Positions 3,538 through 60,537 of a DNA stretch of 64,000 nucleotides are shown here, one piece after another. The notes beneath the pieces are model-generated. The model did not search any database, was not told the DNA's origin, and saw only the letters and a list, made by a program, of their open reading frames with translations. A program made the translations under genes and the position numbers. Origin of the DNA: Iphione sp. A-MEVVRFRX5 (Eukaryota); the NCBI GenBank assembly GCA_976226885.1, contig OZ320318.1, positions 27,404,001-27,468,000 on the forward strand. The letters run 5' to 3'. Numbering within the stretch: the stretch's first letter is position 1; each line of letters starts with the position of its first letter.

Positions 3538-3850
3538 CAGGTGTGGTAACTTGTAGGAACTACAGGAGGATGGCCTAGGATAAGGGTAGTGCCTCATGAG
3601 GTGTGGAGACTTCTAAGGCTACCAGGAAGATGGCCAGGAACAGGGGAGCTACCTTTCGAAGTGTGGAGACTTCTAAGAGAGACAAGAGGATGGCCGAGGA
3701 TGGGCTAGCATCTGACAAGGTGTGGAGACTTCTAAGACTGACAGGAGGACCACCAAGGGTGGGGGAGCACCTCAGGGTGATAGGAGGAGGGTCTAAGGAC
3801 AGGGATAGCACCTTACGAGGTGTGGAGACATCTAAGAGCTACAGGAGGAT
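3538..3850. repeat. ~60-bp degenerate GA-rich minisatellite
   Basis: The motif gtgtggagacttctaag recurs at 3601, 3661 and 3720, with further degenerate copies at ~3541 and ~3820. Confidence 0.8.
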
Positions 3851-6800
3851 AAGCAGACAATAGATGTCACAAGGTGAGGGTCTCCCTAGTCTCCCTTGAT
3901 TTATGCCTACAATACTGAGGGAGTGACATATAGGAATATGGAGGAATCTATTATGGTCCAAGGATTTGTACCTGGAATAGTGAGGGTGCTGGAATAGTGA
4001 GGTGATGGAACGGAGAGGGTTTACTATCTTTGTCCACAGTTCTTTTCTGTAGTGCATTTTTTTCACAAGTTAATTAAGCTGCTGGGTGATTCTTCATGAG
4101 TTATCCATCCAGTTGTGTGGTTTTCACTCTCTTGTGTTTCTTCATGAACTTGTTCAGAACACATTGAAACAATGGTAGCAAATAGCAGTAAACAATGCAC
4201 TGCAAACACAAGGCAAAAGACACCCCTGTGTCACTACAGTCAATGATCACATAATGCAAATACTACAAATAAACACGGGTATGGAAACCAGCCCTAAAGT
4301 ATCACCATTGCTAACTCAAAAATTATATGAGATTCTTACCTGATAACTACAGAGACAGAGAACTGAATTTAAGGGGCACAGAAAGCGATACATGTACACA
4401 ATGGAAAAGTTTATTTTCAAAGGAATTAAACTGAATCGGCGGGTCCTACTCAAGTTAGCTTTGCCCGCATATTCGCTAATGATTTTGTAGTTTTTATGGA
4501 AGATTCTGTTTGCATCGTACGTCAGAGGGACTGTGTACTTTTCAGATTTGCTAACAAATTACATTAGGATCCTTTATTAACTTATCACAATAGTTTGACA
4601 TGTTTGTAGTTCAGACTGTAGTGGATTTTAGCCGAAACCGCATAAACACAGCATCCTAAATACAATGTATGTTGAAGGTTGTCTGATAGAGCCTCTCAAC
4701 AACTCTTTACTGAGGCAAATTGAAACCTCAGTGGCTGCAGCTTTCACGAACTTTAAATTTATCTAAATCTATTTTCCCCGGGGTAAAGGTGTTACATATG
4801 CCCCAGTCATCGTTTGGAATTGCTACAACAAACCTCAGGATGTCAGTTAATACATGTATTACTGTTATAAGTTAAACTCAGTTTATGTGACAATCTGAGT
4901 AAATATTTCATTTAATTCTGCATAAGTGAATATGTATTCATGTATTATTTCTACATGATTGGTCGTGCCGTCATTTAGATTTCATATTATATATAAAGAC
5001 CCTGTCTTGCTGACACTTGCAGTTAATATTATGCGCATTAGACTACGGCATTACAAATCCTGTCAGAGTTTTTGATCAGCTGAGATTGTGTTTCATGTAA
5101 AACGCAAACGTGTTTTGGCACCCATGGTGCAATAACAAGCAATCAATGAGTTCTTGATTGAAAAATATCGTGTTTGTCCCGTAGCAGACAGGCCTGGCGC
5201 CACGTAACTGAATAATAAGAAAACAGTCAACGTCTAGGGATGTTGGCTTGATTACTTCGAGAAATAGAGCTAGGGTAATCCAATAAACTCATTCGCTAAA
5301 CTCTGAAAATGTCATTTGATTCTAATACTTACTTCTTGATTTAAGTAATGCTAGACGTGTAATATAACGAGGCCCTTTAAGGTCTATGCGAGATGATTCA
5401 GCTTTTCGTTAGGCACCCGCGCCATTTACGATTAAAATTGTTGACGCATCGAAGGAGGCTAGATCTTGGCGTGTTCATAGAAGACAAGCTTAAAACCTAC
5501 ATGTTTTAACTGTTTGGCTCGAATTGCCTTCATGTATTCACCGAGGAACCGATAGAGCGGCGCGCAAATATCATCCGCTTTGAAGCTATTTTTTTCACCG
5601 CTTCGCGTTTTTTCCTCGCTATCTTTTCACATTCAAACCCCGTCTTCCTACTTCTGAGCATTACGACATATTTACCTGTTGGAGGGGATTGTTATATCTA
5701 TTTACCTGTGTATGGTCTCGTCTGCGCCCACAGTGGTCGGACATTTGCTCCTTAATTAGGAATATATACTCCGGTATATATTCCTAAAGGCACGTGTGTT
5801 TTCATGGTGGTAATGGCATGTATTCATAAATGATCTTTTGGATGATATAGTATACCAGCCGGAGTGTATCCATGCATGCCTGTAGCATATGATGCGTCTA
5901 GCTTGTCAGTGCATGCTGTATTTTCAAATTAAGAAAAGTCTCAATCTACCATGTTTTCTTGGCTGTGAGGACATATGTTTAATGGGTACTCTATGGTTAT
6001 CTACTGAGGTTTTACATGATGAACACACTACATTTGCACAAGTGGAAATGGCAACAGAGTTTTGCTTTTCACACTACACGAAAATTAGGCCTAAAGCCCG
6101 AGTCCTATATGATGAAGTTTAAACTGCTTATCGCTAGAGAAGAACGTCATATGGCCTCTAATGAATCAAAAACATGTTCATGTTGCCTCTATTCAATATG
6201 TATTTGTGTGTACATAATTATTTTACGTCTAGTAAAACCCCCTACTGGATATTCTAGACAGATCATCCGTCACTAGTGTCTTAAAAATATACTAATCAAT
6301 TTGACTGACAAATACGATACCCTGCGTTATCAAACGTGTTGAGAGATATCTCATGGGCGACACGTTTAGCAGATCATATCGGGATCTAAGATTAAATCTT
6401 AGAAGACAGAAACAAATGTGTAGGCCTCGTCTGGATATATTACAACCAGCGAGATCTTTTATAATGTAAAGCGCATTTTTAGACTATATCGTTGTAGAAC
6501 TGGAGGGAGTAAACGCAGAACTTTAACTTCATGGTGGACGGTAGAGCATACGTTGCCGCCTGGCATATTGACTTGGTTGCCGATCTGTTTGCCCATCATG
6601 TGATAGGCTTGAGGTTCGCCGGAGAAACCAACCATTCCGTGTCATGGGCACGGTTCACTCACACCGACCAAGCTGCCTGTAATCCATCCTCATAAGACAA
6701 ATTTTGGTTTCTATACGGAGCCAGGGGTAAAAAGTGCATCTTGGGTGTTCAGTTAAACAGTACATGTCTGACCAGCATTTACCCAGAGCGGAGACGAGCC

Positions 6801-17753: not shown

Positions 17754-18534
17754 AGACCCCAGCATATTTTGAACTATGGACTTATTCCCTATCTAAACAT
17801 ATATATACATATCTATGAGGTATGAAAAGTTTGGCAACAACCCATTTATGTTGCTCGTGTGTATCTTTGCCTGCATCCCCTTCGGCGCATCGGCGAATTG
17901 TATTTATTGCTGTTTCTGGTCAAAGATTTCTGTTTGACTGTTGAAGGTTTACTTCATTTATACGTCAATTCACCTCTACATAGGTGACTCCCAAACCTTC
18001 CTCTCGGAGGTTTATCACAAAAATCTTTAGACTTAGAGGCTAAAAACCTGTATTTTGTCAAGTAATGACACGCCATATAAATTGTCCCACCGACGCCTCA
18101 GTCGCTGCATGGTGGTGACTGCCTCTATCTGCGGCACATTCACCAGTCTTTCTTCGCTGGGTGGGATTGCATGGTGGGGCTTCTCAGTTTGCAGCGTCAA
18201 GGACGTGTTGGCAGATTTGTTGGCAATAATTAGCTTCGTTAACTCCGTGACAAGAAAAGTGTTTCTTTTCCTGGACTAGTTTGCTTGAATATTCTCGTCG
18301 GTTGCTCCTTACAGTCCTTATCTGCTGCGTGTTCGCTAAGAAAATCCTCATTATGAGAGATGTCATGCTAGGAATTCAGCTTTCTTTTCCTTACTCAGAA
18401 CCTTCCTATCTTCCTCCTAAATCTTATCAACACTTAACAAGGTGAGTGGGTGTCATTTAAAAATTTGGCAGGCATTAGGAGAGTTTAAAAAATACTTTCT
18501 TAGTATAATTGGGAGAAAAGGGGAGTTGATTTAC

Positions 18535-18919
18535 CTGGACGACAGGTGCCAACGGGGTGCTTATTGGTGGCGGCCAGCTCGGGGGCCACCTGCGGGTCGC
18601 AGTAGAGGCCGAGATCGCACCGGCCCAGGTAGCGGTAGGCACCGCCGCAGGCCTGGCCCTCTGTCTTTGCACACACGGGGCAGCAGTCGCAGATGCCGCG
18701 CGTCACGCCACCCTTACAGTGGAGGTGGCGCGCGCGCCGCGGCGTGCAGTGGATCTTCTCGCAGGAGGGGCATTGCAACTCCAGCGATTTGCCAACCGCC
18801 CCCGGCGCGTCGGAGGCCTCCGCCAGAGGCGCAACTGTCGACGAGCTGATGAATGAGGCGGGGAAGTGCGGGCTGATGAGGACCGCGAATGTGCAGATGA
18901 TGAAAGTTATTTGCAACAT
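18535..18919 (-). CDS. Secreted IGFBP N-terminal-domain protein (CRIM1/IGFBP-rP-like), first coding exon; downstream exons not resolved
   Basis: ATG at 18919 begins a hydrophobic signal-like segment (MLQITFIICTFAVLIS), followed by the IGFBP cysteine pattern CPSCEKIHC...CKGGVTRGICDCCPVCAKTEGQACGG...GRCDLGLYC...GTCRP. The exon ends at a phase-1 donor, ccag|gtaaat (intron starts 18534). Confidence 0.85.
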
Positions 18920-19333
18920 GACAGAGGCCGCGCCACCCACAGGTGGAATGGATAGTCCGACGACCGGCGGCGGCTTGGAAGTCTCGCACCGGGATTTCCC
19001 CGACCCCCGAACTTTCAGGAGGAGACTTAAAACAAGTGCGTAAAATGCGCGTGTCCTAAACCTCAAAATGATGGTTGGGCCATGGGGTTTTTAAGTCCGA
19101 GATAAGCTGAACCCCCGTTTCAGTTTGGTAGAGTCGTCGAACTCTCGTGTTTGAAGTTGACGCCCTTTTCATTGAAGTTCTTTGTCATCTATACAGATCT
19201 CTTTAAAGAAAACGATTTTCTGACGAAAAGTAGCCCCCGTTCAGTGAAATGATGAATCTGAAATAACGAATCTGACGCAAACGTGCTGTGTCGGGGGCGG
19301 AGGTTACTCAATGCCGAAATTCCTACTTCTCAC

Positions 19334-19850: not shown

Positions 19851-21509
19851 TGCTCGCGCGTTGAAATATGTTTTTATGCTTGAAACGCTACCGGTTCATC
19901 GAATCACTCGGCAGTCTGCCTTGTCCTACTCACATAGTTTTTCGGTTATCCATTGGTTGATGCACAGGCCTACTGCCCTTTACACATCGCACTCAATAGT
20001 CCTACACACAGCAGATATCCGAACACACGCCATCCATCCTCCTTTCAAGGCTCATAAGAATATCAATTTAGCATGTAGTCAACAAGTGTTCTATTTCCCA
20101 TATTGTCTTCACAGTCCTTGACGGCTGAAATCAGCACGTTGATCTGACAAGTGTTACTTGTGGTAAGTTTTGGTATGTACTCCAGCCAGCTTGCTCACTG
20201 CTTGCTCCCTGGGGAGTGTCTCTGACGTTAAGGTCAGATTGTTAGGAGATTGAAGGGAGTTATATAGTACTAAGTACTTTGTCGGTGTCTTCCAAGTTAC
20301 AGTTTACACACGTAATTTTCCGCTTCCACTGATGATTCCGTCGGGTCGTTTGCGTGAGGTGTTCATCCCCAAAACAGTGGATTTTTGCCGCGTATGAAAA
20401 TTAATGACTGCTCATCTGTGTATAATTATGGAGTACTCTGTGCTCCTCCCGCCACCAAACCAATTTCTTAAGAAAAAAAATCAACATTTAGGTCAGTTGA
20501 TCTCATTTCTTCGAGAGTCCATGCATAAAAATTCTACGTATACCTGTTATTAGAAACTTATTTTAATTACTTCAAACTGCTACTTCTAAAACTTCATAAA
20601 GGGATCTTCAGATGATTAGGGGCAAAACGGAGAGAATTATTAGAAGCAAATGTGGCACTTTGTAATTGATACTGCTGACCGATCTTAGAAACCAACATGA
20701 AACACCATGTCGGTTCGTTGGTGGGCTCTGGCACCGTTCAAAAACAGGCCGTCTGTTCTTCTGTATTAATGATGACACGTGCCATTGATTCCTGCTATTT
20801 ACATGCACTGTCAGACAGTTGAGTTCACTTACTACATAATTTACGAATTCAAGAGGAAGTAGAGCCAGAATACATCCTTGTGACTAATACAATGAAAATA
20901 GTATTTCTTGTCGTCCGATTTATTATACGCTTCCCCTCAATATATGCATACTAACTTGAAACCTGAAAAGGTACAATATATAAAAGGACGTTCCTGAAAT
21001 AGAAGAAGGAACTGTCAACACAATATTGATCGAGATGGCTCTGCCACTCCGCTTGACAAAGTATGGCTCCATATTGCTCAACAGTGAACATGCTTTTGAA
21101 TGTAAAGGGCTCATTAGCTTTACTAAGTGGATCATCAATGTTGCACTTGGTTGGAGATAGCCGATCAGTCGGCAGGAAGTTTTAAAGCTGACATTCAAGT
21201 AGCCGTACTGTCCGCAGTCCGTGTGCACGTAAGTCCGCATCCGCATGTCTCTGTGCAAGTAAAACTTTGTGACCGGCTGTTTTTCAGTGCATATTTATGT
21301 GATGTGCAAATCTGTACATGTGTGGGGGTGAGAATACCACTTGAAGTTTCCCATACCATGTGTAGGAAATCAACATGTATGAATGTGAAGCATTGGGAAA
21401 AGGACATTCACATTGTATGGTATCAGACCATACTGGTGTCCATCTCCACAGTTAATTCATTGTAGCTATTGTGGCCTGTCGCACGTAAATTGTTTTATGG
21501 TCTCTATAT

Positions 21510-21722
21510 TGTAGCAACGGGGGGGAAAGCGGAGGGCCATTACGCGGAGGAGCGGAGGGTGCGGAGGGAATACTGCGGAGGGTTATCATTTACTGCGGAG
21601 GGTTTACATTTACTATATAAATGCGTTGTTTGTTGGATTCGTGGTCAGTTGTGTCGAAGCTCTTCAGCAATAAACATCATCTTCCTCAACTTATGTCGTC
21701 TTCATTATGGCGGAGGCCAACA
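21510..21722 (+). repeat. 5' LTR (213 bp, TG...CA)
   Basis: Matches 29399-29620 with 3 substitutions and one 9-bp indel by eye. Contains TATATAAA (21614), Inr-like TCAGTT (21645), AATAAA (21669) and seven GCGGAG. Confidence 0.97.
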
Positions 21723-21723
21723 T

Positions 21724-21741
21724 TGGTGTCAGAAGTGGGAT
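21724..21741 (+). other. Primer-binding site, tRNA-Leu(CAA)-type
   Basis: tggtgtcagaagtgggat lies 1 nt after the LTR and is complementary to the 3' end ...AUCCCACUUCUGACACCA that I recall for metazoan tRNA-Leu(CAA). Confidence 0.85.
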
Positions 21742-21866
21742 GCGGAGGGGAACCTCGGGGCCGACGAATCGAGGCCCTGAGAGGGAGCAAACACCCCCTC
21801 CACAGAAAGCAGCCACGGCAGCCAGGACGCGGAGGGTTACCCGCAGGGCAACTGCGGAGGACGCCG

Positions 21867-22946
21867 ATGGGGGAGAAGCAGCACAACTGCCCACTGGGAG
21901 GCCGCGCCCAGTACGCACCCCTTCGAGGTTATGGGGAGGGGGCGAAGGTACAGAGGGGGAATCGGCTTCCCCCCCAAGGAGCGGTGAAGACGGCTCGGCA
22001 GGGGCCCACCCTGCGGAGGACCCCGGGGCGGCGGGGGCCCCTGGCACGGGGGGGGGGACAGCCAGCCGGAGGAGAGGAGGAACTCCCCAATGTGGAAGAC
22101 CCTCACCAGGAGTCAGAAGAGGAGGAGGAGGAGGAAGAGGAACCAGAGGAGGACTCGGATAAGCGGCCCCGGAAAGGTAGAGCCAAGCCCGAACCATACG
22201 ATGGCTCGACGGACCTTGACGATTACCTTCACCACTTCGGCCTCATCGCTGCCGCCAATCGATGGACAACCAAGGAGAAGGCCATTCATCTCGGAATCAG
22301 TCTCCGTGGTCCGGCAAGGACCACCATGCGGAATTCCGTCGTGCGGGTCCACGGCCCGCGGGCCTATCAGAAGTTGGTGGAGGCCCTCCGCAGTCGCTTC
22401 AGGTCGCCAGATCAGGTGGACCTATTTAAACAGCAGTTAAAGACCCACAAGCAAGGCGAGGCCGACTTATCCCAACTGGCTGACGAAGTGGAGAACCTGG
22501 TGAAATGAGCGTACCCTGGGGTACGAGGGCGGTGGGCGGATGAGCTCTGCCGGGATAGCTTCATCCAGGCGATTGTGGATGAGAAGGTGAGGAAGTGGGT
22601 GGTGCAGCGGAGGGTGGCCAACTTCCGCGCGGCGGTATCGGAGGCCCTCTTCGGGGAGGCCTATTTCCAAGGCCGGAGGGAAAGGGAACCAACAGGGAAA
22701 GCCTATGGTGGAAGGGCTGGCTGCCACTCGCTGTCGACGGTGGAGGGTGACGCCCGGGCCAAACGAGAGGACGACTTCCTGGACCGACTCGCTAAGAAGC
22801 TGGACCAGCTAGAGAGGCGATTGGAACAAAGTCCGACAACGGGCAGTCGAACCGGGTGCTTCCGCTGTGGGAAGGAGGGGCATTTCAAACGGGACTGCCC
22901 TTCCCGGCCGAAGCCGGCGGAAAACGACATGCCGCCCTCCCAGTAA
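21867..22946 (+). pseudogene. gag: gag (one premature TGA at 22506)
   Basis: KPEPYDGSTDLDDYLHHF capsid-like region and CFRCGKEGHFKRDC CCHC knuckle, in one frame across the TGA. The start codon (21867) is uncertain. Confidence 0.9.
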
Positions 22947-25900
22947 GGGGACAGGGAGAGGCGGCGGAGGAGTCCATCCCCAAGGAGCAGCTCAATGACT
23001 GGCTCTAGAAGAGGGCGGCCATGCCGCCGACAGAGGAAGGAGAGGCCTTCACCATCCTAAGGGGGCGGGCGGATCCTATGACGGGGGCACTAGGGCTACG
23101 AGGGAAGGTCGGAGGCCACGAAATGACCTGGCTGGTGGACACTGGGGCCTCTACCACCATCCTCGCGGTGCGAATGGCGGAGGCTCTCCGCCTGCCTGTC
23201 ACGGTCCTACCAGGGCGACGCATCATTGCCGCCAACGGGGCGCCCTTCCCCTGTGTGGGGAGAACTGAGGTAACGGTGGTCTTCAGGGAGACACCCTGGA
23301 CGATGGAAGCCCTGGTTGCAGAGGTGGAGCAAGCTGCCATCCTGGGGATGGACGCCCTCCACCGGAGGAGGGCTGTAGTGGACACAGCCGCCGGGACAAT
23401 CACCATCAGGAAGAACAGAGCGTGACCAGAACGAGTACAGCTAGCACAGGACACCTGTTTGAAAGCCCGGGCCGAGACCCTCATCTCGGTAACCATCGGT
23501 CAGGCCAAAGGGGGCGAGTGGGTTGTAGGACTGGTCCCCGCGCTGGAACATCGAGCGGGGGTGCGGGTGCCACATGCGGTGGCTAACGTGGACAATGGGC
23601 AGGCGCAACTCCTCTGTCTGAATGTGGCAGAGGGGGAGGTCTGGCTGTGGAGGGGGATGCAGGTGGCAGAGGCGGAGGAGGTCGAGGAGGAGCTGCGGAG
23701 GGAAGACGACCAAGGCAGCCCTAGGGCGCAAGGTGAGGTGCCCGCTCAGGAGGAGGGTGAGGCAGAGGAGTCCCTCTACACACGGCTAATCGAGGAGCTG
23801 ATGTCCGAGCTGCCCTCGGGAAGTACGGTGGAAGAGCGGGAGCAGTTGAGGAAGGTGCTTTGGACCCACCGCCGCGCCTTCCAGAGGGAGGGCACCGATC
23901 TAGGGTGCACCAATCTCGTGGAGCACGAAATCCATACAGAGGAGGCTGCCCCGGTACGACAGAGGTTTTGACGTCTTCCACCCCATAAAATGCGCATCGC
24001 GGAGGCTGAAATCCAGAAGATGGTACGACAAGGGGTGTTGGAACCCTCCAGCAGCCCGTGGGCCTCACCAGTGGTACTGGTCAAGAAGCGCAGTGGGGAG
24101 TGGAGATTCTGTATAGACTTCCGGCAGCTCAACGAGCGAACGCGCAAGGATGCTTACCCCCCACCCCGCGTGGATGATACTCTGGATGCGCTGGCCGGAG
24201 CCAGGTATTTCACGGTGATTGACCTGGCATCTGGGTATTGGCAAGTAGCGGTCCGGTCGGAGGACCGCCCGAAGACGGCCGTTTGCACCCCATCTGGGCT
24301 CTATCAATTCCGGGTCATGCCCTTCGGACTCTGTAACGCCCCCTCCACGTTCGAGCGATTGATGGATGTCATCCTTCGCGGTCTGGTCGGGGACTCCTGC
24401 CTTGTGTACTTGGACAATGTCATCATCATGGCCAAGACGGTGGGGGAGATGTGTGACCGCTTGGCGGAGGTGCTCCAACGGCTGGAGGCCGCCAGCCTCA
24501 AAGTGAAGCCTAGCAAGTGCCAGCTCCTCCGAGAACAGGTACAGTACCTTGGTCATATTGTCAGTGCGGGCGGGGTCCGTCCTGACCCGGAGAAGGTCCA
24601 AGCCGTAGCGGAGTGGCCAGTCCCGGGGACCTTGGCTGGTCTCCGCGCCTTCCTGGGCTTAGCCTCTTATTACCGCTCATTTATCCAAGACTTTGCGCGG
24701 CGAGCTGCCCCCCTCCATCGGCTGTTAGACAAGGAAGCGGAGTTCCAGTGGGGAAGTGAAGAGGAAGCCGCCTTTGAAGATCTTAAGCAGTGTCTAACTT
24801 CCGCACCCATCCTCGGATACCCCCAGCTGGAGGGGCGCCTGATTGTGGACACTGACACCTCTGGCAAAGGAGTGGGTGCCGTGCTCTCCCAGGAGCAGGA
24901 TGGCCGGGAGAGAGTGTTGATGTACGGTAGTCGAACCCTCACCAAGCCCGAGCGACGCTATTGCGTAACTCGGAAGGAGCTGCTAGCCGTGATCTTCGCC
25001 CTCCGGAAATTCAAGACCTATGTCAGCGGAAGGAAGGTCGTGGTCCGCACAGACCATGGAAGCCTCCGGTGGCTCATGAACTTCAAAGAGCCAGAGGGCC
25101 AAATGGCACGCTGGCTGGAGGAGTTGGCCTGTCGAGAGGTGGAAGTGATACATCGACCGGGGAGGGTGCACAACAACGCCGACGGGTTGTCGAGACGGCC
25201 ATGTCGACAGTGTAGCCGACGAGAGCCCGAGGAGACGGCCGCCGTTCTGACTGCGGAAGTGATGGCGGAGGCCCCTTCATCCTCCGCCATGGCTAGAGCC
25301 ACCCTAGCAGACCCGATCAGGGGCGAGTTACTGGGACGGCTGGAGCGGGGGGAAAGCCCCCCCGAGGTCAAGACCGAGACCAGCTGGGAAGAACGACGGC
25401 TGGTAGGGGAGTGGAAACAGCTACAGGTTCGCAGAGGACTGATCGTGCGGAGGTGGGAACATGAAGACGGGAGGGCCTGGTGGCAGGCCTGGGTTCCCCC
25501 CCCTCTACGGAAGGAGTGCTGGACGATGATTCACCAGGGAGCCATGGGAGGCCACCTTGGCCCTCAGAAGATGGCTGGCCTCCTCCGGGGGAAGTATTTC
25601 TGGCTGGGAATGACTTGGGACTCGATTGTGTGGGGGGCTGCCTGCCCTCATTGTCTGGAGGCTAAGGAGCCCAGCCGGAGGAGATGAACTCTGTTGCAGC
25701 ATCGCCAGAGCCCGGGACCTTGGGAGTTAGTAGCCGTGGACATCGCCGGACCATTCCCGCGGACACCCCGGGGCAACAAGTACATCCTGGTGATAGGGGA
25801 TCATTTTAGTAAATGGGCGGAGGCCTTCCCGCTCAAGGAACAAACCGCGGAGGCTACTGCGGAGGTGTTGATGAAGGAGGTGATATGTCGGTTTGGGCCT

Positions 25901-26679
25901 CCCAACAGCGACCAAGGCCGGAATTTTGAGGCGGAACTAGTGGCCCAACTGCTCAGTAGTTGCGGAATTCAGAAGACAAGGACCACCCCCTACCATCCCC
26001 AAGCCGATGGAGTAGTGGAGAGGTTCAATCGAACACTAGAGCATATGCTCACAACGACCGTCCAGGAAGATCAACGTGACTGGGATCTTCGGCTGCCATT
26101 TGTAACCGCTGCGTACCGGGCAACCCCCCACCGAACTACCCGATTCTCCCCAAACTTCCTCATTTTGAATCGGGAGACTACACTCCCCGTCGAAGCAGCT
26201 TATGGGGGCCCCCACCGGAGGAAGGAGCAGAGGTTGGTCCTTACGTCCAGGAGCAGATGGAACGGATGAAACAAGCCCATCGACTGGCAAACCAGCGTTT
26301 GGGGGAGGGAATCCAGCGCCAGACCGACTGGTACAACCATCGAGTGCAGCCTCGAAACTTCGCGGTAGGAGAGGAGGTGTACCTCTTCCTGCCGTTGAAA
26401 AAGCCGGGGCTATCTCCTAAATTACAGCGCTACTGGCAAGGCAAATGGCGGGTCAGCAAGCAGCTTTCGGCCGCCGTCTATCGCATCAAGAAGGGACGGC
26501 GAGAAAGAGTGGTACACGCCGACCTCCTGAAACCAGGAGCCCCGGGGGAAGATAGCGATGTCGTGGCCACCCTCCGCATAGAGAAGAGCGGAGGGAGGAC
26601 CGAGGAAAAGGCGGAGGTCCTCCGCAAACCCAGAGCCGTTGGAGTTCAAAACGAAGTGGCCAATCAGAAGGGCGGATGA
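22922..26679 (+). pseudogene. pol: pol (protease, RT, RNase H, integrase), -1 frame relative to gag, disrupted
   Basis: LVDTGAS protease; RT motifs SPWASPVVLV, MPFGLCNAP and YLDN (normally YLDD); RNase H DTDTSGKGVGAVL and NNADGLSR; integrase HHCC plus D..D..E core. Stops at 23006, 23423, 23969 and 25685, a frameshift near 26220-26260, and a short in-frame deletion at FGPPNSDQG. Confidence 0.96.
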
Positions 26680-26805
26680 GAAACGCGGAGGGGGCCGCGG
26701 TGCGGAGGGAAGCAGCCAGCCAATGAAAATTGAGTGGAGGATGCCGAGGCGCCAGATTCGAATATAAGTGACGCTCGCCCCAGGGGATGCTCATCATTCG
26801 ACACC
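26655..26805 (+). promoter_or_regulatory. Putative internal promoter for the accessory ORF
   Basis: CCAAT at 26660 and 26721, GC box gggcgg at 26670, GCGGAG at 26685 and 26702, TATAAG at 26763, and TCATTC Inr-like motif at 26794, followed by ATG at 26806. Confidence 0.55.
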
Positions 26806-29382
26806 ATGACGAAGAGCCAGAAAGACAAATATCCCTGCCCACTCTGCAAGAAAGTCTGCGACCACAAGGACAATCTTTAAAGACACGTGCAGACCCACAG
26901 CTCTGAGGCCTTCGTGTGGGGGTGCGGAGGGGAGAAGTGCGATGGGAAGATCTTTATGCGCAAGGACGATCTGAGGCGGCACCTGGATTCGAAGACCCAC
27001 CTGGCCGAGGGGGGTGCGCAAAAACTTCTACCTCGAATGAAGGAAGAATATTACGAATTCTACAAAAAGCCGGGGTCCACCAACTTGCGAGGGCGGCTCC
27101 GTCGCCCCGAAGAGACCGAGGAGGAAACGGGAAGCGGGACGTCCGACTCGGCCAGACCTCGACACAGTAGCCGCCACAAAGACAAGAAGAGGAGCAGAGA
27201 GCGGGGTGAGGGGTCGCACGAACACCGGAAGTCACGCCGCCGGTACAGTACCCCCACTCCACCCAAGAAGAAGAAAGCCAGACTTCCCTCCTCGTCGGAC
27301 AGCAAGCCCTCCGCACCATCGCTGCCCACTCCGTCACTGGGACCTCCACGCCGGCCACCAACTTCCCCGCAGGCTTCCACCTCGACAGGGCGATGGGAGA
27401 GACCGGTTATCCTGACTTCATCGGAGGAGAGTGCCCCCGCCTCCCGGTCTCCCTCGGCGGCTCGGGTCCGAGTGCACAAGACGGCCACCCGACGGAAGAA
27501 GGAGGACGGACCTGAGAAGAGGCTGACGAGGTCTACCCCTGTCAAGACAGTTCCAACGGAGGAGACGACGATGAAAAGCCTAACACCCACCAAGAAGACG
27601 AAGGGGGCGAATGCGGAGGGGAGCGCTACCACCAAGGCATTGGCGACCAGCTCCTCTACGAAGAAGAGGAAGCTTGGGGAGGCGGAGGCAGCAGTCGACC
27701 CCCCCACACACCCTCGCGTCCGCCAGCTCGTCCACGAGGAGGGGGAGGGTGAGCCACCCACCTCCGCCTCCTCGCCCCAGGGGATGAGGGCCAAATTACA
27801 AGAGGCCATCAACCGCCTTGACGCCGCCGAGGCCTTGGACCCTCCCGTGACACCGACCGCCCTGGAGAAGCTTCTGTCTGCTGCGGGAGACCTGGAGGCA
27901 GCCATGCGAGCCACGGATCTCCGGCCCAGTCGGTCGGAGTCCAGCCCGGTCACCCCAGGGAAGGGCCTGGGGCTGACCCCCGCCAAGCCAGCCCTCCGCA
28001 CGCCAGAGTTACTGAAGGGGGGTCAGCGAACGGAGGCCCCCCCTGGTCGGCCGATCGTCGCCTGGGCCGGGCTCACCGCGGACAAGAGCGGAGGACTCCC
28101 TGACAAGGCCATGTCCCCGCTCCTCAAGACCCCCACTCATTGAAGGTCGGTACCGTCGCCACTCCTCCGCACCCCCACGATGCCTCCGACCCCAGATGAA
28201 CTGAGTGTTGCAATTCAGACGTTGGTCTCCTCTGCGCGTGAGGGGCCGAAGGCGCCACAAGCCGAGGTCGACCAAGCCGCCCAAGTCCTGGAGGATCTGT
28301 TTGGGGCTGTGGACATGGACACCCTCCTGGCCGCAGCAAACCCTCCGTCAGTGGCCCCACCCGCCACGATCCAAGAGACGGCTGGGGGAAACGCCGAGAA
28401 CGCCGAGCCGCCGGAGGCTGCGGAGGGGGGCGAGTCCTCCTTTGGCTCCCTCGTTGGTCATCCTATTCCTTCCAGCGAGGACGGGCCAACCCCTGAGAAA
28501 CCGTCTCAAGAACTGTGCTATACGGAGGGTGCGGAAGCGGAGGCAAACCCAGTGGTCGAACCCCTTACTCCAATTGGCCACGAAGAAGTGGAGAAGTCGA
28601 GGCGAATTGCGCGCCAGGTCCTGGATTGGGAGGCAAGGCGGCAACGCTCCTTGAGTCAGTCTGGCGCGCCTCTTGTATCGGCGGGAGGCGACGGGGTCGG
28701 AAGCGGGGAGGCCGAGCCCTCCCCCTGCAAGGCTGGGGGGCAAGCTGCCACAGCCCCTGGCTCTACCGAAGGGAAGGTGCCCCTCCAATTGGTGGAGGGT
28801 GATGAAAACGGGAGGGTCGGTGGCGGGCCCACCTCCCACGTCGGAAGGAAGGAGTCCCTCCAATCGGCGGAGGGTGACGAACACGGTAGGGACGGTGGTG
28901 AGACCGCCTCCCACGACGCGCTGCCCCCTCGTCAAGGCGAAGGAGGGGGGGGAACCTGCGGAGGCCGAGCCCTCCATCCACCAGGCTGGGCCGGGGAACG
29001 ATCGCCCAAACCCCTGGCCCCACCGGAAGGAAGGTGCCCCTCCAATCGGCGGAGGGTGATGAAAACGGGAGGGTCGGTGACGGGCCCACCTTCCACGTCG
29101 GAAGGAAGGACAATTCTGATATCGGTGGGCAAGAGCCGAGTGGCGCGGAGGCGAGGTCGAATGTGCGTAGTAATTGAGAGCCGCGTCCGCTTACAAAGAA
29201 GGGAGGAGGACGCCTCCCTGGAGGGAGAGACTGGGTTTCTCTTCTCTGACTGGTATAGAGGGGTGCGGCCAGTGCCCCTGGGCCTCCAGATTGATGAATT
29301 TGACATTCGTTTAGAGTTCCTTACTGCCGCTGATGTTGAATTTGAGGTTCATGAATGTTATAGTATCCTGGGTCAGGATTAA
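26806..29382 (+). pseudogene. Accessory ORF3: tandem C2H2 zinc-finger protein with basic NLS-like motifs, long S/T/P-rich disordered region, acidic segment and unknown C-terminal domain (two premature stops)
   Basis: MTKSQKDKYPCPLCKKVCDHKDNL*RHVQTH-SSEA-FVWGCGGEKCDGKIFMRKDDLRRHLDSKTH. The track ORFs 26887-28143 and 28180-29382 are in the same frame, separated by TGA at 28141; the other stop is TAA at 26878. Confidence 0.85.
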
Positions 29383-29398
29383 ACTAAGGAGGGGATAG
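29381..29398 (+). other. Polypurine tract
   Basis: aaactaaggaggggatag abuts the 3' LTR. Confidence 0.8.
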
Positions 29399-29620
29399 TA
29401 TAGCGACGGGGGGGAAAGCGGAGGGCCATTACGCGGAGGAGCGGAGGGTGCGGAGGGTGCGGAGGGAATACTGCGGAGGGTTATCATTTACTGCGGAGGG
29501 TTTACATTTACTATATAAATGCGTTGTTTGTTGGATTCGTGGTCAGTTGTGTCGAAGCTCTTCAGCAATAAACATCATCTTCCTCAACTTATGTCGTCTT
29601 CATTATGGCAGAGGCCAACA
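29399..29620 (+). repeat. 3' LTR (222 bp; first dinucleotide mutated TG>TA)
   Basis: Copy of 21510-21722 with one extra GCGGAGGGT unit. Confidence 0.97.
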
Positions 29621-31794: not shown

Positions 31795-33699
31795 TTAGTA
31801 GCAACTCTTCTTTCCATACTTTGGTCAGCCCATTAATTTCCAGGTGAGATAAGAAAGACATAAAATTATTGATTTCGTGAAAAGCAGTATGGATATCACG
31901 TGATCACTCACTTCAAAAGTTTATCATAGAAAATATACTGAAGTAAACACAAAACTCACTTTCAACTAGATTTTATTAGGAATTAGCTAGTAATAACGAC
32001 AGCATGACAAGGAATGTATAATAAACATACGTTAAATCCAATATTGCAGCATCCTATTTTAAGTATCCAAAAGATAATAGAATCCTGTGACCGTAAATAG
32101 TTTATTTTCATTTCTTGCACCCACGAGAATTTATAACCAATGAAACTAAAACCTTTGTATCAATCATAATAAAACAAAATCCAAAATGGCGGCCAATGCA
32201 AGCATGTTCGCTACATATCTAAACAAGAAGCCGCTTTTCTTGGTAAATTGATATGAAACAATCCATATGTCTTATTATAAATAGTCAGAACGGACTTTAA
32301 CCCTTAGACGGCGGCGGGGTAGTATCGCGTGTATCCACCATGCAGTGGTACTTGAGTAAAGACGTAATCCAATAGAGGGCGAGACATATACAGCATCATC
32401 GCCCATGATGCGTCCTCGTGGTGAATCAGGCTGGACTTTTTGTCTGTTTTAGGGATATTATGAAACTGACAATTACTAATCTAAATGGAATTATTATTCT
32501 AAGGGATATTACAAATTTATGGATGACTTTTCATAGGAATTACATTACTTTTTGTGCCATATCGGACTATCAATCACTGGATAGTTAAGCTGACACTGGA
32601 TTACGTAAGATGCTCATACTGGATATACAGAAAGTACACATGGAATTTAATTAATATATGACCAACAAATAACAGGAAAAATGTGAGTAATATTCAATTT
32701 CAATTTATTTTGTGTTTGTGGGCATCCAGATAGCAGTCAGTTTTACATTTTACTCCTGGACGATGTCTGCATAGTTCACATGAGTGTGGTAGGCGGTGAA
32801 GCAGCCAGGGAGGCAGAGGTGAGCCCCACAGTCGACACACCCATATTTTTTTCGACTCAATGATCTAGTTGGATCATATTTCCTCCTGGAATAACACACC
32901 TTACAATATGACCTCCTCCCCAAGTCTGAGGGCATACAACGATTTGTCAGTCTGCTTGCTTCAAGTGGTTGATTTTTTAGAGCCTTAGGGACAAATTTCC
33001 TCCTAATGAGATGGATATGAGAGATTCAGCACAACAACGGATGAAAAACTTGAGTGACTTCCTTTTTGGCTGCTGAGAGTTAAACATGATACATGCATTC
33101 ACCTTTATCACCTCAAACATATTCCACACAAATTTCAATGTCCACTTGTTGGTTCTCCTGCTGAATAAATAGTATTGCCTAAGCTGGTCACTCAGGTTGA
33201 CTCCTCCCATATATTTAGAATAATCGACAATACTCTGCGGGCAGGGAATTTCAGTCTTCTCAAAGCGGCTGGTCTGCTTATTTTTCAATAGTCTGGATAC
33301 ACTAGTCATAATGGATTTGAGGATGGTTGATATTACACGTACAGGTTTCCTATCTTGCCAAACTGTAAGAATTATATCCCTGCATACCCTAAGTACATAC
33401 AATCCTCTATCTCTTCCAAGCATTTTTGTTTTTTTGCAAGCTAAATCAGCAGGTAGACCTCTGGCATTACGGCATATCGTTCCACCGCAGTAGACACATT
33501 TCAATAGAGTATTCCTGAATAGTTTCAATGAGGTATAATGATTATCAAAAAATAAATACAGGAGAATCTCACTTTGCGACCACCACTTGGGTCGGCCCAA
33601 AATGGTCGTAATTCTGAATATGGTCGCAAAGTGATTGTGGAGGGGTTTGGGCTTGAAATCATATCCCTTTCTCCCTCTCTCTTTATTAACATATGAAAC

Positions 33700-33823
33700 G
33701 TCCAAAAAGTGCTGAATTTGATGACTTTAGGTCCAAAAAGTGCTGAATTTGATGACTAAAAGTCCAAAAAGTGCTGAATTTGATGACTTTAAGTCCAAAA
33801 AGTGCTGAATTTGATGACTATAA
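33700..33823. repeat. 31-bp tandem repeat x4 inside the MITE
   Basis: gtccaaaaagtgctgaatttgatgact at 33700, 33731, 33762 and 33793. Confidence 0.95.
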
Positions 33824-33834
33824 GTGACTCAAAG

Positions 33835-34310
33835 AGGTGAGAGACCATCAAAGACGTCGCAGTTGACGCCTGCGACCACTGCCGGCCAACCCCTCCAAGG
33901 TGTGAGGAACATCAGAGACGTCCCCGTTGACGCCCGCGACCACCCCGGCCAACCCCTCCAGGGTGAGAGACCATCAAAGTCGTCGAGGTTGACGCCCGCG
34001 ACCACTCTCGGGCTACCCCTCCAGGGCGAGAGACCATCAGAGACGTCCCCGTTGACGCCCGCGACATCCCGCGACCACTCTCGGGCTACCCCTCCAAGGT
34101 GCGAGGAACATCAGAGACGTCGAAATTGACGCCTCGACATCCCGCGACCACTCTCGGCCTCACCCCTCCAGGGTGAGAGACCATCAAAGTCGTCGAAGTT
34201 GACGCCCGCGACCACTCTCGGGCTACCCCTCCAGGGTGAGAGACCATCAGAGACGTCCCCGTTGACGCCCGCGACATCCCGCGACCACTCTCGGGCTACC
34301 CCTCCAAGGT
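33835..34310. repeat. ~63-73-bp GC-rich tandem repeat, about 7 copies, inside the MITE
   Basis: Unit gggtgagagaccatcaaagtcgtcgaggttgacgcccgcgaccactctcgggctacccctcca, with variants. Confidence 0.93.
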
Positions 34311-37300
34311 GATGGTCGCAAAGTGATATTAAAATGTACTAAAAACGACCCTAGGAGGTGTGGTTGGAGGCTGAATATGGTCGGAAAGCAATATGGTCAC
34401 AAAGTAAGACACTGTCATATAGAGAATGTACTAAAAATGATTCCGTTCTGACCCAAAATGGTCGCAATAGTCGATTTGGTCGCAAAGTGAGGAGGTCGCA
34501 AAGTGAGTTTCTCCTGTAATACCCTTGACCATCCATGTCTGCCGCAGCCAGAAGCTTGTCGACCACAAAGTCCCTCAATGACACATTGGCCCGATCTTCT
34601 TGTCCGTGGTATGGGAACAGTTGTAGGATGTACCATGTGGATAGAAAATATAATTTCCTGAGTATTGATAAGGTAAGAACATATGGTAGACACAGATATG
34701 AATATATGCCAGTTTGATAGCACCATTTCCAAAAATAAATATATTCTAATGAAAAATAATTTGTATTACCTGTTGCTGATTCGGCAAGGGCTCAGCACTT
34801 GATACTCCATTTACATGGCTTTTGGGGCATGTACTGCTTCAGGAAGACTTTTCCCTTGAAGGCGAACATGGATTCGTCAATGGATATATTTCTCAATGGT
34901 CTGTACACATATGGTGCAATCTTGTTGAATATTTCCACAACATAGTTGACCTTCCAAGTTGGAGAGTAGTCTTTGTCGCCACAGTCGGGTGTGTGCGTGC
35001 AGTCATAGAAGCATAGGTAGCTGGAAAGTAAAATACCAGAGAAATGGTTAGATACATTAATTTTTTGGTGAGAATTCATTATGAAAAAATAAATACAATT
35101 TTATCATAGATTATTTACAGATATACGAAATTGCTATGACTGTGACAACACAAGAAAATTATACATACCATAAAATCTGGCAAAACCAGTCTCGAACCAT
35201 CACCTTGGGGAAGAAAGGTGTAGCCAATGACTCTGCAGTCAACCAATAGTCCTTTAGTTCAGGTTTATCCAGCAATCCCATCAGGAATACTAGTCCAAAG
35301 AAGCCTTGTATTTTGTCCAGGGTTACCTTCCACCACTTCATTTTGTGCTCTTTGGGGTTGGCCTCCCAACTCTTCTCAGCATAAGCATTGGTATAGTCCA
35401 TGATGGTTGTGAGGAAAGACAGTGGTAGAAATAAACATAAATAATCAAAGAGTTTGCTAGACTTGTCTAACCCTGTATTATCTTGGACTCCTGGTGCTTT
35501 TCCAGTAAAATTGTGAATTTCTGGGCTTATTCCTGTATTCAAAGTCTTCCATCCATCGTCTCCACATAAAGCACTCAGTGGTTCATTGTCACTGTCTGAG
35601 CCACTCTCTTCACCATCTGAGTTGTCCGTTGAGGCTTCACCCTCTCCAATCCCTTGATCGAGCAGTTTCAACATAGATATAGGCAAAATTGTCCTCTCTC
35701 AAGTCTGAACCTGAGCTAAATTCGTCATCCATGCTTCAAAAATGGTATTTCTCCAAATAATGAATGAATGAATGCAGTGTAAATACACACAGGTGCGTGT
35801 GGTAGTCCAAGATGCTAAAATATGTCATATAGAAGATTTTACTTGGTTACTCCTAAAAACACACTCCTATGATTATAATTTAATGTCTGTTCTGCACGTC
35901 TGACCCCTTCCCATAAAATTAAAAATAATAGTTCACCTTGAAAATTGACACTGAATCATATAGGTTAAATATAATGCTTAAATGCAATACTCCCCGTCCC
36001 AACGGGAATGCACGGACGCACTACTCGCCGGGACCACGGGAATGCGTCAATGCACTAGCCAGCATCAGAGGGTTAAGAGTCAGCTTCCACATTTGCATAT
36101 TCGTGTCATATTTGCATTGTTACCAGTACATTGTTAACGTTGTGATTGTACCCACATCTGCATTGCTTTAATACATTTGCATTTGCGTTATTTGTTTTTA
36201 TGACAGTGCTCATAAATTTTATGCAAATATATGAGGAGGATACAGCAGAGCAAGCTAGAATATATGTGAAAATACGTTAGATCACGCAAAAAATCTATCT
36301 AGTTTGCATATCATTCGAATAAATACCATACAGTTGGACAAATGTCAGATATTTTCAGGGAAAAACAAATATTTGGCATAACTTCAGGAAATTCACAGGA
36401 AAAAAACTACACAGTTAGTACAAATTTCAGACATTTATGGGAAAAACTGCACATTTAGCACAAATTTTTAACATTTGTAGGACAGACTGCACATTGGCAC
36501 AATTTCAGGATGGTCCACATCATGCATACATGTGGAAAACAGCAGGAAATGGTAGGAAATGCAACACATTCATGCAAGCAAAAGGACACCTTCTGCATGG
36601 GCATGTCTTATTCCTTTCACAACAGGTATTTTTGCACAATGCAAATGCAGGCAAAATGCGGAAAAGCAAATATGGAAACTGGACTAAAGTCTATATGCTC
36701 TATAGTTTGGTAGTTAAATCACTTAGAGCCTTAACCTGCAGGCTCAGCTGTTATGATGAAACTACAACACAAAATGTAACAATCTACACTTTATGCCTTC
36801 CATGGATTTTATCCTACCTTAATTCAATCAGTATTTTTCAGATTATAACCACATCTCTCATTCTCATACTCTTCATGCTTTTTAGTATAAATGCAACTAC
36901 TAATACCATTTCAATGAGACATGTTATCAGAAAGGTGAAGTGTAAGTGAAGTTATATCGTAAAACAACTGAGTCATGTAAAGTTTGCTCTTAGTGACTGT
37001 GTAAGGTGACAGGTAATGACAACTATCAGCGAAATACCATAGAACCATACCATACCATAGAAAAACATCTGTACTCTATTTATTGGATATTCAAATCATC
37101 CAACTGATTGCAAATAATATTTATGAACTTTTTAAATATCATTGAAGTCATTGAAATTATATTCATGAAGTGATCTTATTAAAGCTTCGATATAATTCAA
37201 GATTAATAAAATTGGCCAATGAAGACAATGTTCCCCCTCCTCATGACGTATAGAGTTGCAGTGGAAAGACACTTTAGGGACACATCCCTAATAGTGGACC

Positions 37301-45877: not shown

Positions 45878-48800
45878 ATGTTTCTGGTGCTCTACACTCG
45901 TAGCACCAAGATAGTAAACTCACTATTCACCAGATGCTTGAAAAAGACTGTGTGTCAGCCTGCACTAACGCCGCCGGAATCTCGTCGAGCGGAATGCTTA
46001 CATCCTGTTGTACAGAAAGATCGGTTTCGCCTTCTTCAGTCTACCGCTATTAACACTCAGTTTCCCCCTTTCCAAAAACGGAAGCGAACGTATCCTTCCA
46101 ATTGCAATCAAGCGGTGTCTTATACGCCGTTTGCCTCATTGAGTCTCAACTCGCCCACCGGCTGCGCCCACCCAGAATATTCTGATGGATTCGTGAGGTC
46201 CAAGCATAAGAAAGACAGGAAGAATCTTAAGTCATCAGAGAAGGAGGGGATTGGAATCTTTGACCAGCAACAACTGCATATACGGCCGCAGTCACTTGAA
46301 CGACGGCAATCAGTGAAACTCGGATATATCTACACAACTCAGGGAACAGGTGCAATGGAGTCCAGGGGTGTGAAGTAAGTACAGGAGAACCCCACCATGC
46401 GACCAGTCGCCTAGGGCGACCAGTCGGCCAGTGCGACCAGTTTTACTAAGAACGAACCAAATTTCAGTACATTTGCTATATGTTACACTTCGCCCATGGC
46501 GACCACTTGGCTTGGGCGACCATTCGCCCAATAAGACCACTATTTCCAGTACCAAAGTAATGATTTCAAGGTGTCTATGGCGACCACCAGCCCACATACC
46601 CAAATAAACACTATGAAAATGACCCTTGAGGAAGTAATTTAGACTTCTTTTCCCCATAATATTCAGTTAATTTGGACTTTTTCCCCATAATATTCAGTTA
46701 ATTTGGACATTTTCCCCATAATATTCAGTAAATTTGGACTTTTCCCCCATAATATTCAGTTAATTTGGACTTTTCCCCCATAATATTCAGTTAATTTAGA
46801 CTTCTTTTCCCCATAATATTACCCATAGAGAAGGACACATAGAGAGGGACATAGAGAGAGAGAGGGAGACAGAGAGAGGGACAGAGAGAGAGGGATACAG
46901 AGAGAGGGATACAGAGAGAGAGGGAGAGAGGGAGACAGAGAGAGGGACCCAATGCCTTAGGCGACCATCTGCCTAATGCGACCACTTCAGCTCAGTCCCT
47001 TAGGTGGTCGCATTAGGCGGGTTCTCCTGTACAAAGTTGTTTTTACCTTCCGTCATTATTTCTTAGTTAAAATTCTGCATGTATTTGACTTTTTTTGTAC
47101 GTATTGGTTGTTATAAAGTGCAAAAGTCAATATAGTATTGTCTTAATCCGTATTTACAGACGTCGCAGTGAAATGCATCACAGTCCGCGGAAGAAGCAGC
47201 CTCGTCATGTGGGTAGTGAGCATGCTGCCTACTCATCAGGAGTTAGCCTGGAGATCGATCCAGTGAGTAATCCCTGTACAGGGTATGCCTCTGTTAACGA
47301 AGGACGTGTTCTAGGAATTCACTTCATTCTAGAAAACTACGTTTATTAGAGTCAAGTTTGTCCAAAATGTCTTTACGGGTTCTTTTTTTTTTAGGTTTAA
47401 TTAAAAAAAAAAAAATTATGTTTTCTCGTACATTGATATATCTGTACATATCTTTTTCTTTGTAGCTACCTTCTAGCTCTCTATATGGCACTTTGCGTCT
47501 CTTGTTTCCCAAGTTTTGGGAGCTACTTTGAAGAAAAATGTTTATGGAAAGTAGTCTTGGGCTACAGTGGAAATAGCCAGTTTCAATTCATTAAAAAGGA
47601 ACTTTGTTATCAGAGGCTTCGTTAAGAAAGGTATACCCGACTTGTCAGAGTGAATGAATTCTTTAGAGCAGATGTGTTTTCTGTAAACCAAATGAAACTG
47701 ATATGCTTCTCTTTTGTCGTTTTTTGCCGTAAAAAATAAGGACGGCTTTATAAGCTTAAAAACCGTTTCCTTTTGTATGCTGTTTTTTGGGGGGAAGGGG
47801 GAGGGATTTCCGGGAAGGTCTTGCACTTGTGCAAATGACTTGATATAGAAATTTGCAGGCATCTCTACATAGGTGTCATCTGTAGTACGTGTCACAGTCT
47901 CTCTGATAGTTTGCCTGTTGTAAGATGAAATGAAAACCACCAGAGCACACTGGATGCTACCCTGTAGTGTCAGTTGGTATGAGAAATATATTGCAGTATT
48001 GTGTGGATTTTAGGGGGAAAAGATGGGTTGTTTGGTAGCTCCATTTCCTTACCTCTTTTTAGGCGAGCACCCTAACAAGGGTCTGTAGGGTTGCCTTATA
48101 AGTTATAGGTAGAAGAGAGCTGTTAACGTTATCTGATGTTTCAAAAGCTCCACAGACTACGTAATAAGTACATGTCGGTGCGGTGCTTATGTGGTCATCT
48201 TTTTTAAAAGGATCACAGTTATGTGCCCGTCAGTGCTACCTTGAGGCAGCTCTCTTGATTGACCCACATTGCTTATGACCATCCCCAGCCGGTTTTCAGC
48301 TGGTTTCTTATATTTTCATTTATCTTTAGATTGATTTGGTTCAGATTGCCTACATTTTCTCTGTTTACCTTGACTTGTTTCCTACCTTTGATTTTCATTT
48401 TCCCCAGTGGACGCAATATATGTGGCAGTTTTATGAAAGTCGCCACCAAACAAAAGAAGTCTACATGAAGAAAATGAGGCTTCGTGAGGCCCTCTACACG
48501 TTAATGAAGGGAGTCTTTCCACGTAAGTTCATTGATGTGTGGTTGATTGACTGTTTTAATGATTGTTCTCTTGGTGACTTTCTCCTTTTGATTAAGATAT
48601 GAAGCCCGAAAACCTGAAATTTCAGACATGCGTAAGTTCTTGAGATGTCATATGTCAGAATCATTTCATGCGGTTCGCAGGTCTGTTGAAAGATGGGAGG
48701 ATACACATACATACATATATCATGTCTCTTGTCATGCCTTATGATCACCAGATTTTCTGTTCTTTATCAGATTGCGGAGTGTATGTTGTTGGTTCTTCAA

Positions 48801-59800: not shown

Positions 59801-60537
59801 GGAAAGCACCAGGGCTACCCATCGACCTCCCAGTTGGATGGCAGGCTGCTAGATGGGAGGAAGTTCATAAGGGGAGAGCACCAGGGTTACCTGTCCACCT
59901 CCTGGCTGGATGGTGGACAGCTAGGTGTGAGGGTGTTTATGAGGGGAGAGCACCAGAGCCACCCAATGACCTCCAAGCTGGATGACAGGCTGCTAGCAGG
60001 GAGGGTCCACCTGTCCACCTCCCAGTTGGATGGTGGATTGTTAGATGGGAGGATGTTCATGAGGGGAGAGCACCAGGGCTACCTGTCCACCTCCAGGCTG
60101 GATGGTGGACAGCTAGGTGGGAGGGTGTCTATTAGGGGAGAGCACCAGGGCTATCCATCCACATCCCTGCTGGATGTTGAGCTGCTAAGTGGGAGGAGTT
60201 CATGAGGGGAGAGGGTTTCAGCTACCCACCCACCTCACAGCTGGACTGCAGGCAGCTAAAAGGCGGGAATCCATCAAGGAAGTGTTCTAGCCACCTGTTC
60301 ACGTCTTGACAAGATGCTGAGCTACTAGGAAAGGAGGGTACTTACAAGGGGAGAGTGCTAGGGCCTCCCATCTACCTCTCTGCTAGACGCCGGGCCGTTA
60401 GGAGGAAAGGGCTGGGCGAAGGGATATCAAATATCTCTGAATTTGTCCATGCAATTTGGTTACAAATTGAATAAAATTCATGAGATACTACTGTATTTCT
60501 GTTCCAGTATCCCTCTTTTTCCCTAAATCGATATTTT

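Follow-up and report, generated by a model that had tools for sequence, protein, structure and literature searches.

The Element and Its Pol Extension

The region under study (26806-29382) is the 3' third of a Ty3/Gypsy LTR retrotransposon that occupies 21510-29620 of the window, by which we mean the whole stretch of 64,000 nucleotides that was analysed. The element has no env and carries near-identical LTRs, a primer-binding site, a polypurine tract and an ATAT target duplication, and its Pfam domains follow the Ty3/Gypsy order, i.e. gag and then PR-RT-RH-IN. The copy in the window is decayed, with several stops and frameshifts. The element is made up of the following parts:

21506-21509: target-site duplication ATAT; a second ATAT lies directly after the 3' LTR
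21510..21722, + strand: 5' LTR, with six GCGGAGG upstream of the TATA box (21529, 21544, 21552, 21561, 21575 and 21595)
21710, + strand: seventh GCGGAGG of the 5' LTR, close to the LTR 3' end
21724..21741, + strand: primer-binding site, which we take to be of the tRNA-Leu type
21867..22946, + strand: gag, with a CCHC knuckle and, in the window copy, one in-frame stop
22920..26530, + strand: pol core (PR-RT-RH-IN), broken in the window copy by several stops and one frameshift
26531..26805, + strand: in-frame linker that is also the predicted internal promoter, with GCGGAGG sites and, in the window copy, two private stops
26806..27100, + strand: Met, finger 1, finger 2 and a conserved extension
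26836-26898, + strand: C2H2 finger 1, with the helix RKDNLKR in most copies, damaged in the window copy
26923-27000, + strand: C2H2 finger 2, with the helix RKDDLRR
27101..28746, + strand: low-complexity region, basic (NLS-like), S/T/P-rich and acidic, with short conserved helices
28747..29107, + strand: coding tandem repeats, variable in number between copies, shortened and partly out of frame in the window copy
29108..29382, + strand: remainder of the folded C-terminal domain, conserved and ending at the shared stop
29383..29398, + strand: polypurine tract
29399..29620, + strand: 3' LTR, with seven GCGGAGG before TATA and AATAAA

The 3' end of gag overlaps pol, and a -1 frameshift is likely near 22920. 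On the opposite strand, ~2.4 kb from the 5' LTR, lies a reading frame with an IGFBP domain (18503-19090, -), a host gene that the motif-rich LTR could affect. Two piggyBac-like transposase fragments (PF13843) with 31-bp and 63-bp tandem repeats between them are found at 32977-35698 (-), and tandem or spaced repeats occur at 59596-60195 (72/192 bp), 46648-46837 (31 bp) and 3584-3868 (about 60 bp). At other loci (L063, L067, L079 and L080) the copies are internally deleted, with ~4-5.5 kb between the LTR matches, and have kept the finger region and lost most of gag-pol; at L040 (337-841) the end of a second copy in the opposite orientation abuts the 5' side of the copy.

A sequence-only reading had proposed that the region encodes, through two stops, a single transcription-factor-like protein of ~858 aa in the position of env. 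The frame from 26806 to 29382 is indeed continuous over 858 codons with internal stops at 26878 and 28141. The window copy was compared with 39 others fetched from its own genome, in which a DNA search had scored 40 of 139 candidates, at 92-100% identity, and the two stops are not family-wide: that at 26878 is present in none of the 39 other copies and that at 28141 in none of 37 aligned, and the final stop is common to 37 of 37 aligned copies. What did not stand is the idea of a separate ORF, as the region encodes the C-terminal 1,055 aa of Pol, in frame with integrase. The two stops that lie between integrase and the ATG are present in 2 and 0 of the 39 other copies, the integrase tail and the ATG are separated by a multiple of three nucleotides in 38 of 39, and in 27 of these 39 old copies the frame is uninterrupted from the C-terminus of integrase to the end of the fingers, the remaining 12 being broken by scattered single stops (10) or frameshifts (2).

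A single frame of 2,395 aa is present in 22 of 150 scored finger-region matches. Six copies with this frame were fetched; their LTR pairs are 99.1-100% alike, i.e. the copies are young, and in one of them Pfam recognises PR, RT, RH, IN and C2H2 in one chain. The order in the Pol of young copies is PR-RT-RH-IN, linker, two C2H2 fingers, a disordered part and the folded C-terminal domain. The 2,395-aa frames, together with the privacy of the separating stops, argue that the finger protein is the tail of Pol, and finger region and integrase are likewise in one frame in families B and D and in the one copy of C that was read. The length of ~858 aa is correct for the frame in the window but not for the family, in which young copies, starting at the same Met, encode 1,055 aa. 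Around 28930-29110 the window copy is short of ~410-580 bp of repeats and the beginning of its C-terminal domain, part of its 858 aa is read out of frame around this loss, and of the C-terminal domain, which spans ~110 aa in whole copies, it lacks the first helix and the PP.GW motif.

The transcription-factor-like character of the protein was upheld. Both C2H2 fingers of the proposed pair align to solved fingers, with finger 1 falling just below the Pfam cut-off; they have the spacing C-x2-4-C...H...H, base-contact residues at -1, 3 and 6, and an inter-finger linker of 8 residues that is near-canonical and not TGEKP. C2H2 is the only domain recognised by Pfam in the Pol extension. The basic patches and the S/T/P-rich tract are present as described, and the protein is rightly called a non-envelope protein: it has no signal peptide or membrane helix, no hydrophobic stretch (the top 19-residue hydropathy is 0.89) and 0-2 N-glycosylation sequons, and it is fused to pol. 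A reading of the frame as an env of the errantivirus type was rejected, with top hydropathy of 0.64-1.43 across 8 families and the frame fused to pol. The acidic activation domain was not confirmed: families B and D retain the helix with its terminal (L/M)FG, but in a form that is not acidic. The C-terminal domain is modelled as helix-hairpin-helix-hairpin (pLDDT 84), with no Foldseek match at E <= 0.001 in the PDB or a viral library, no Pfam family and no usable match in the ESM Atlas.

The dN/dS comparison that had been proposed shows purifying selection. It was made on natural open copies, as five pairs from within families, and the values are far under 1: 0-0.13 for the fingers, 0.14-0.20 for the low-complexity part, 0.04-0.19 for the last 110 aa (the C-terminal domain), 0.36-0.60 for the tandem repeats and 0.06-0.08 for RT-IN. 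The private stops and this selection together indicate that the continuous non-envelope protein is real. In the linker, dN/dS is 0.17-0.86 and dS is lower than in RT-IN in five of five pairs, and this low dS fits constraint on the linker DNA rather than on the linker protein.

Linker Signals and the Finger-Bearing Clade

In the window copy, the linker contains CCAAT at 26660 and 26720, TATAAG at 26763, an initiator-like TCATTC at 26794, which sits ~30 nt past TATAAG, and ACCATG (Kozak) at 26803. In families A, B and D, which are 69-77% identical to one another in RT-IN and about 40% in the linker, the sole TATA match of the 7-kb pol lies 43-58 nt upstream of the Met, and CCAAT lies another 44-53 nt upstream of TATA. 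Copies of family C have the same CCAAT-TATA cassette, and in F and two of three E rows CCAAT and TATA stand 34 nt apart, farther upstream. The predicted leaders have 1 out-of-frame ATG in 1,419 nt, compared to 8 expected from the rest of the linkers. The presence of CCAAT, TATA, initiator and Kozak ATG in the linker suggests that a stand-alone finger protein is likely made besides the Pol fusion. In the G, H and I rows, a strong match to a 3' splice site (branch point, pyrimidine tract and AG) precedes the Met in 6 of 9 cases and a near TATA in 0 of 9; no splice donor site was identified. From this arrangement, the G, H and I families appear to use a spliced RNA for the finger product, as env does.

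Among 150 scored integrase-tail matches, 20 long-frame loci were chosen by the integrase domain alone, and 20 of 20 have the finger pair in the integrase frame; those read to their end share the C-terminal domain. A search with the fingers added 18 more loci, all 18 with two fingers and 16 with an integrase motif in the same frame. The linker is 198-1,764 nt long and poorly conserved, yet the frame through it is open in every family. In RT-RH trees, which contain few outgroups and were rooted at the midpoint, a branch with 100/100 support sets the finger-bearing rows (11 of 24 and 15 of 19) apart from the others; they fall into three subclades, so that the covariation of fingers and motif described below does not amount to many independent events.

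A finger or C-terminal domain profile is matched by none of 120 RT relatives from other animals. Searches for relatives beyond the element's own genome gave none by words from the integrase tail and fingers (528 candidates), none by alignment of the C-terminal domain (8,000 candidates) and none among 74 candidates from viral contigs, and in a profile search of 1.84 billion representatives the best 150 were multi-finger proteins only, none of them matching over the whole 100 positions; each of these is a weak blank.

Predicted Finger Specificity and the GCGGAGG Motif

Alignment to solved fingers gives RKDNLKR for helix positions -1 to +6 of finger 1 and RKDDLRR for those of finger 2. An Arg at +6 reads G, and an Asp at +2 favours G or T as the next base. 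Table 1 of PMC7317221 gives GCG for RSDDLVR and AAG for RKDNLKN, with the later finger reading the 5' triplet. Taken together, the published code and the rules for +6 and +2 predict that the fingers bind GCG GAG (G/T). For family A the motif was already known when its agreement with the code was noticed; the code does not itself depend on the motif.

In the LTRs of families A and B, GCGGAGG is the commonest 7-mer, with 7 copies in the 215 bp of A and 8 in the 288 bp of B where 1,000 shuffles give 0.05 and 0.12, and these two LTRs, both rich in the motif, are unrelated in sequence. The internal regions of A and B have 50 and 53 copies versus 3.6 and 4.0 in shuffles (13-14-fold), and the rest of the window has 3 in 55,870 bp. 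In the enzyme cores of the two families there are 16 copies versus 3.5, and 20 versus 4.9, expected from protein and codon usage, and on the reverse strand 4 versus 0.6 and 7 versus 0.5; nine neighbouring words show no excess in the enzyme cores, bar small counts of GCGGAGT. The site is 7 bp with no upstream base preference, and base seven is G in 64 of 72 and 69 of 81 sites. Among all 7-mers GCGGAGG ranks first in A, B and D and in 0 of 10 other rows (E-I). Judged by these counts, the motif is written into RT and IN by synonymous codon choice in three diverged families. The sites span the whole element on both strands, including positions near both LTR ends, and cluster just upstream of both TATA boxes.

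In old copies, decay is ~six times as fast at CpGs as at other cytosines (about 13% versus 2%). At the motifs, CpG decay is 0.109 (41 CpGs), not significantly lower than the 0.131 at distant CpGs (403; p = 0.34), and by this proxy the old copies bear no trace of lasting methylation protection at the motifs. Old copies may simply be silent.

Finger 2 has an invariant R/D/R in 11 of 11 and 18 of 18 rows, and the words repeated in the LTRs have GCGG at their core throughout; what varies among families is finger 1 and the remainder of the word. The word is GCGGAG(G/T) in A, B and D, GCGGAG with a free seventh base in F, which has Ala at +2, and GCGG(A/T)NC in E; in family I the base contacts of finger 1 are lost and U3 has no GCGG array. 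For families J, L and M the motif predictions were fixed before the LTRs were viewed (K was unreadable). The prediction for J failed in part, GCGGGGA being commoner than GCGGAGA, and those for L and M failed, with GCGGCT(A/C) and GCGGCA(T/G), respectively, seen instead. Family G keeps GAG despite a Gln at -1 and the LTR of family H has GCA, both off the simple code. Given these failures in distant families, the simple code fits only A, B, D and F, and loosely E. Motifs that are family-specific within one host are more readily explained by a self-encoded reader than by a fixed factor of the host.

The LTRs of G, H, M and I (L098, L100, L103, L094 and L114) contain palindrome-like RTGCNGCAY and TGCA repeats, and finger 2 of this subclade has a Trp at position 4; a different or dimeric binding mode may underlie both features. 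In family I (L085-L093, L095 and L104), finger 1 has kept its zinc ligands while losing the base-contact residues, and the predicted leader carries CGC repeats with a period of about 15 bp.

Proposed Function of the Extension and Comparison with Known Systems

We consider it probable, on the sequence evidence, that the extension is a self-encoded, self-binding activator or anti-silencer of its own family. More tentatively, we suggest a regulator with two modes of self-recognition, which would be packaged with Pol to license new insertions and would be re-made from a nested promoter or a spliced RNA for private positive feedback; RT and IN would have been recoded with the site, and the families would have drifted apart, each towards a protein-site pair of its own. 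We find this fuller scheme possible rather than probable. In this scheme, (i) a short RNA from the internal promoter, ending in the 3' LTR, would make the stand-alone protein, (ii) both the internal promoter and the LTR array would receive feedback from this protein in the manner of Tas, (iii) the protein would coat the body of the element against silencing in the manner of VANC, and (iv) the particle would carry along the Pol-fused copy, to be loaded onto new cDNA. Families G, H, I and M would make the same product by splicing, and coating of the whole body would be limited to A, B and D.

An alternative that we regard as unlikely is that the fingers bind their motif mainly within Pol or integrase, where they would serve the pre-integration complex by holding, compacting or importing its cDNA and would play no part in transcription. 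Such a role would explain why the Pol fusion is kept, and it agrees with the frame that stays open through a poorly conserved linker in every family, with the spread of sites over the element on both strands up to both LTR ends and with the many basic NLS-like patches; however, it accounts neither for the conserved Met nor for the nested promoter or splice acceptors, nor for the clusters of sites before the TATA boxes, and integration does not need the extension because none of the 120 RT relatives carries it. The motifs could also be sites for host factors of the Sp/KLF or EGR/WT1-like types, their match to the element's fingers being coincidence or mimicry. GCG triplets together with R/D/R fingers are common in host factors (EGR1, KLF and WT1 are among those aligned), and the detailed predictions failed in distant families, but we hold this explanation to be improbable, given a 7-bp site without upstream preference, the presence of the GG required by Sp/KLF at 4 of 67, 11 of 74 and 8 of 68 sites, and motifs that differ between families inside one host.

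That the protein binds its own element in order to repress it, as a form of copy-number self-control, would be compatible with a C-terminal domain without known match; with young, identical-LTR copies in many families and with sites stacked before TATA like upstream activating sequences, we judge repression decidedly improbable. Most improbable of all is that the fingers tether integrase to host GCGGAG sites as a targeting device resembling a chromodomain tail. The fingers do lie at the integrase C-terminus, the place of other Gypsy targeting modules, but in 40 resolved insertions, out of 54 with both ends found and taking 400 nt on each side, there are 5 GCGGAG in 31,227 nt of flanks (0.16/kb) against a window background of 0.20/kb, and insertions of families A, B, D, E and F duplicate 4 bp of the target, which read ATAT in 29 of 40 and lie in an AT-rich, AT-alternating context.

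For their transcription, simple LTR retrotransposons are taken to depend on factors supplied by the host. Complex retroviruses are known to activate themselves sequence-specifically, and plant DNA transposons are known to counter silencing in a sequence-specific way. If the extension does act as a self-binding activator or anti-silencer, a C2H2 self-reader encoded by a Gypsy element would extend both principles to animal retrotransposons and would reverse the usual picture, in which the zinc fingers of the host silence transposons. No account of such a design for animal retrotransposons was found in the open papers covered. As the host methylates these elements, such a self-reader may also account for their burst into many young families. 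Co-evolution of protein and site is directly testable here, since the specificity of C2H2 fingers can be read and both finger 1 and the motif differ among a dozen families.

The targeting modules at the C-terminus of Ty3/Gypsy integrases include the chromodomain and the tails of Ty3 and Tf1. As in those proteins, an extra module follows in frame after the integrase C-terminal GPY/F domain (PF22938); unlike those modules, the extension comprises ~1,000 aa, has its own start signals and gives no sign of targeting to its motif. With the env of errantiviruses it shares the position in the element and, in G, H and I, an apparently spliced RNA, but it has no signal peptide or membrane helix, has nuclear DNA-binding features and is fused to Pol.

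The foamy-virus DNA-binding regulator Tas (Bel-1) is produced from an internal promoter located within 3' coding sequence, and both this promoter and the LTR are its targets (PMC4929722, PMC8670036 and PMC13220597). The extension would resemble Tas as a retroelement-encoded DNA-binding regulator, and its predicted internal promoter likewise lies towards the 3' end of the coding sequence. It differs in that the element is a Ty3/Gypsy element without env, that the predicted promoter lies inside pol, that a C2H2 pair stands in frame with integrase, and that one short site is repeated 50-70 times, coding DNA included. Kinship with Tas was rejected, as there is no spumaretroviral env and Pfam finds only C2H2 in the extension. 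VANC proteins are encoded by VANDAL elements, Mutator-like transposons of Arabidopsis, and have short target motifs that are present at high copy in their own element and differ between families (PMC5735166 and PMC6719617); they mostly bind non-coding regions (PMC5735166) and have a MAIN-like fold (PMC13547354), and our comparison also draws on PMC12859917. The element described here likewise has its own short, high-copy, family-specific motif. VANC, in contrast, is a separate gene of a plant DNA transposon, while here C2H2 fingers are encoded by a Gypsy element and the sites lie in coding DNA; membership of the VANC family was rejected for a C2H2 protein of a Gypsy element that is not Mutator-like. 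On the best reading of these comparisons, the extension would work like Tas and VANC and be related to neither.
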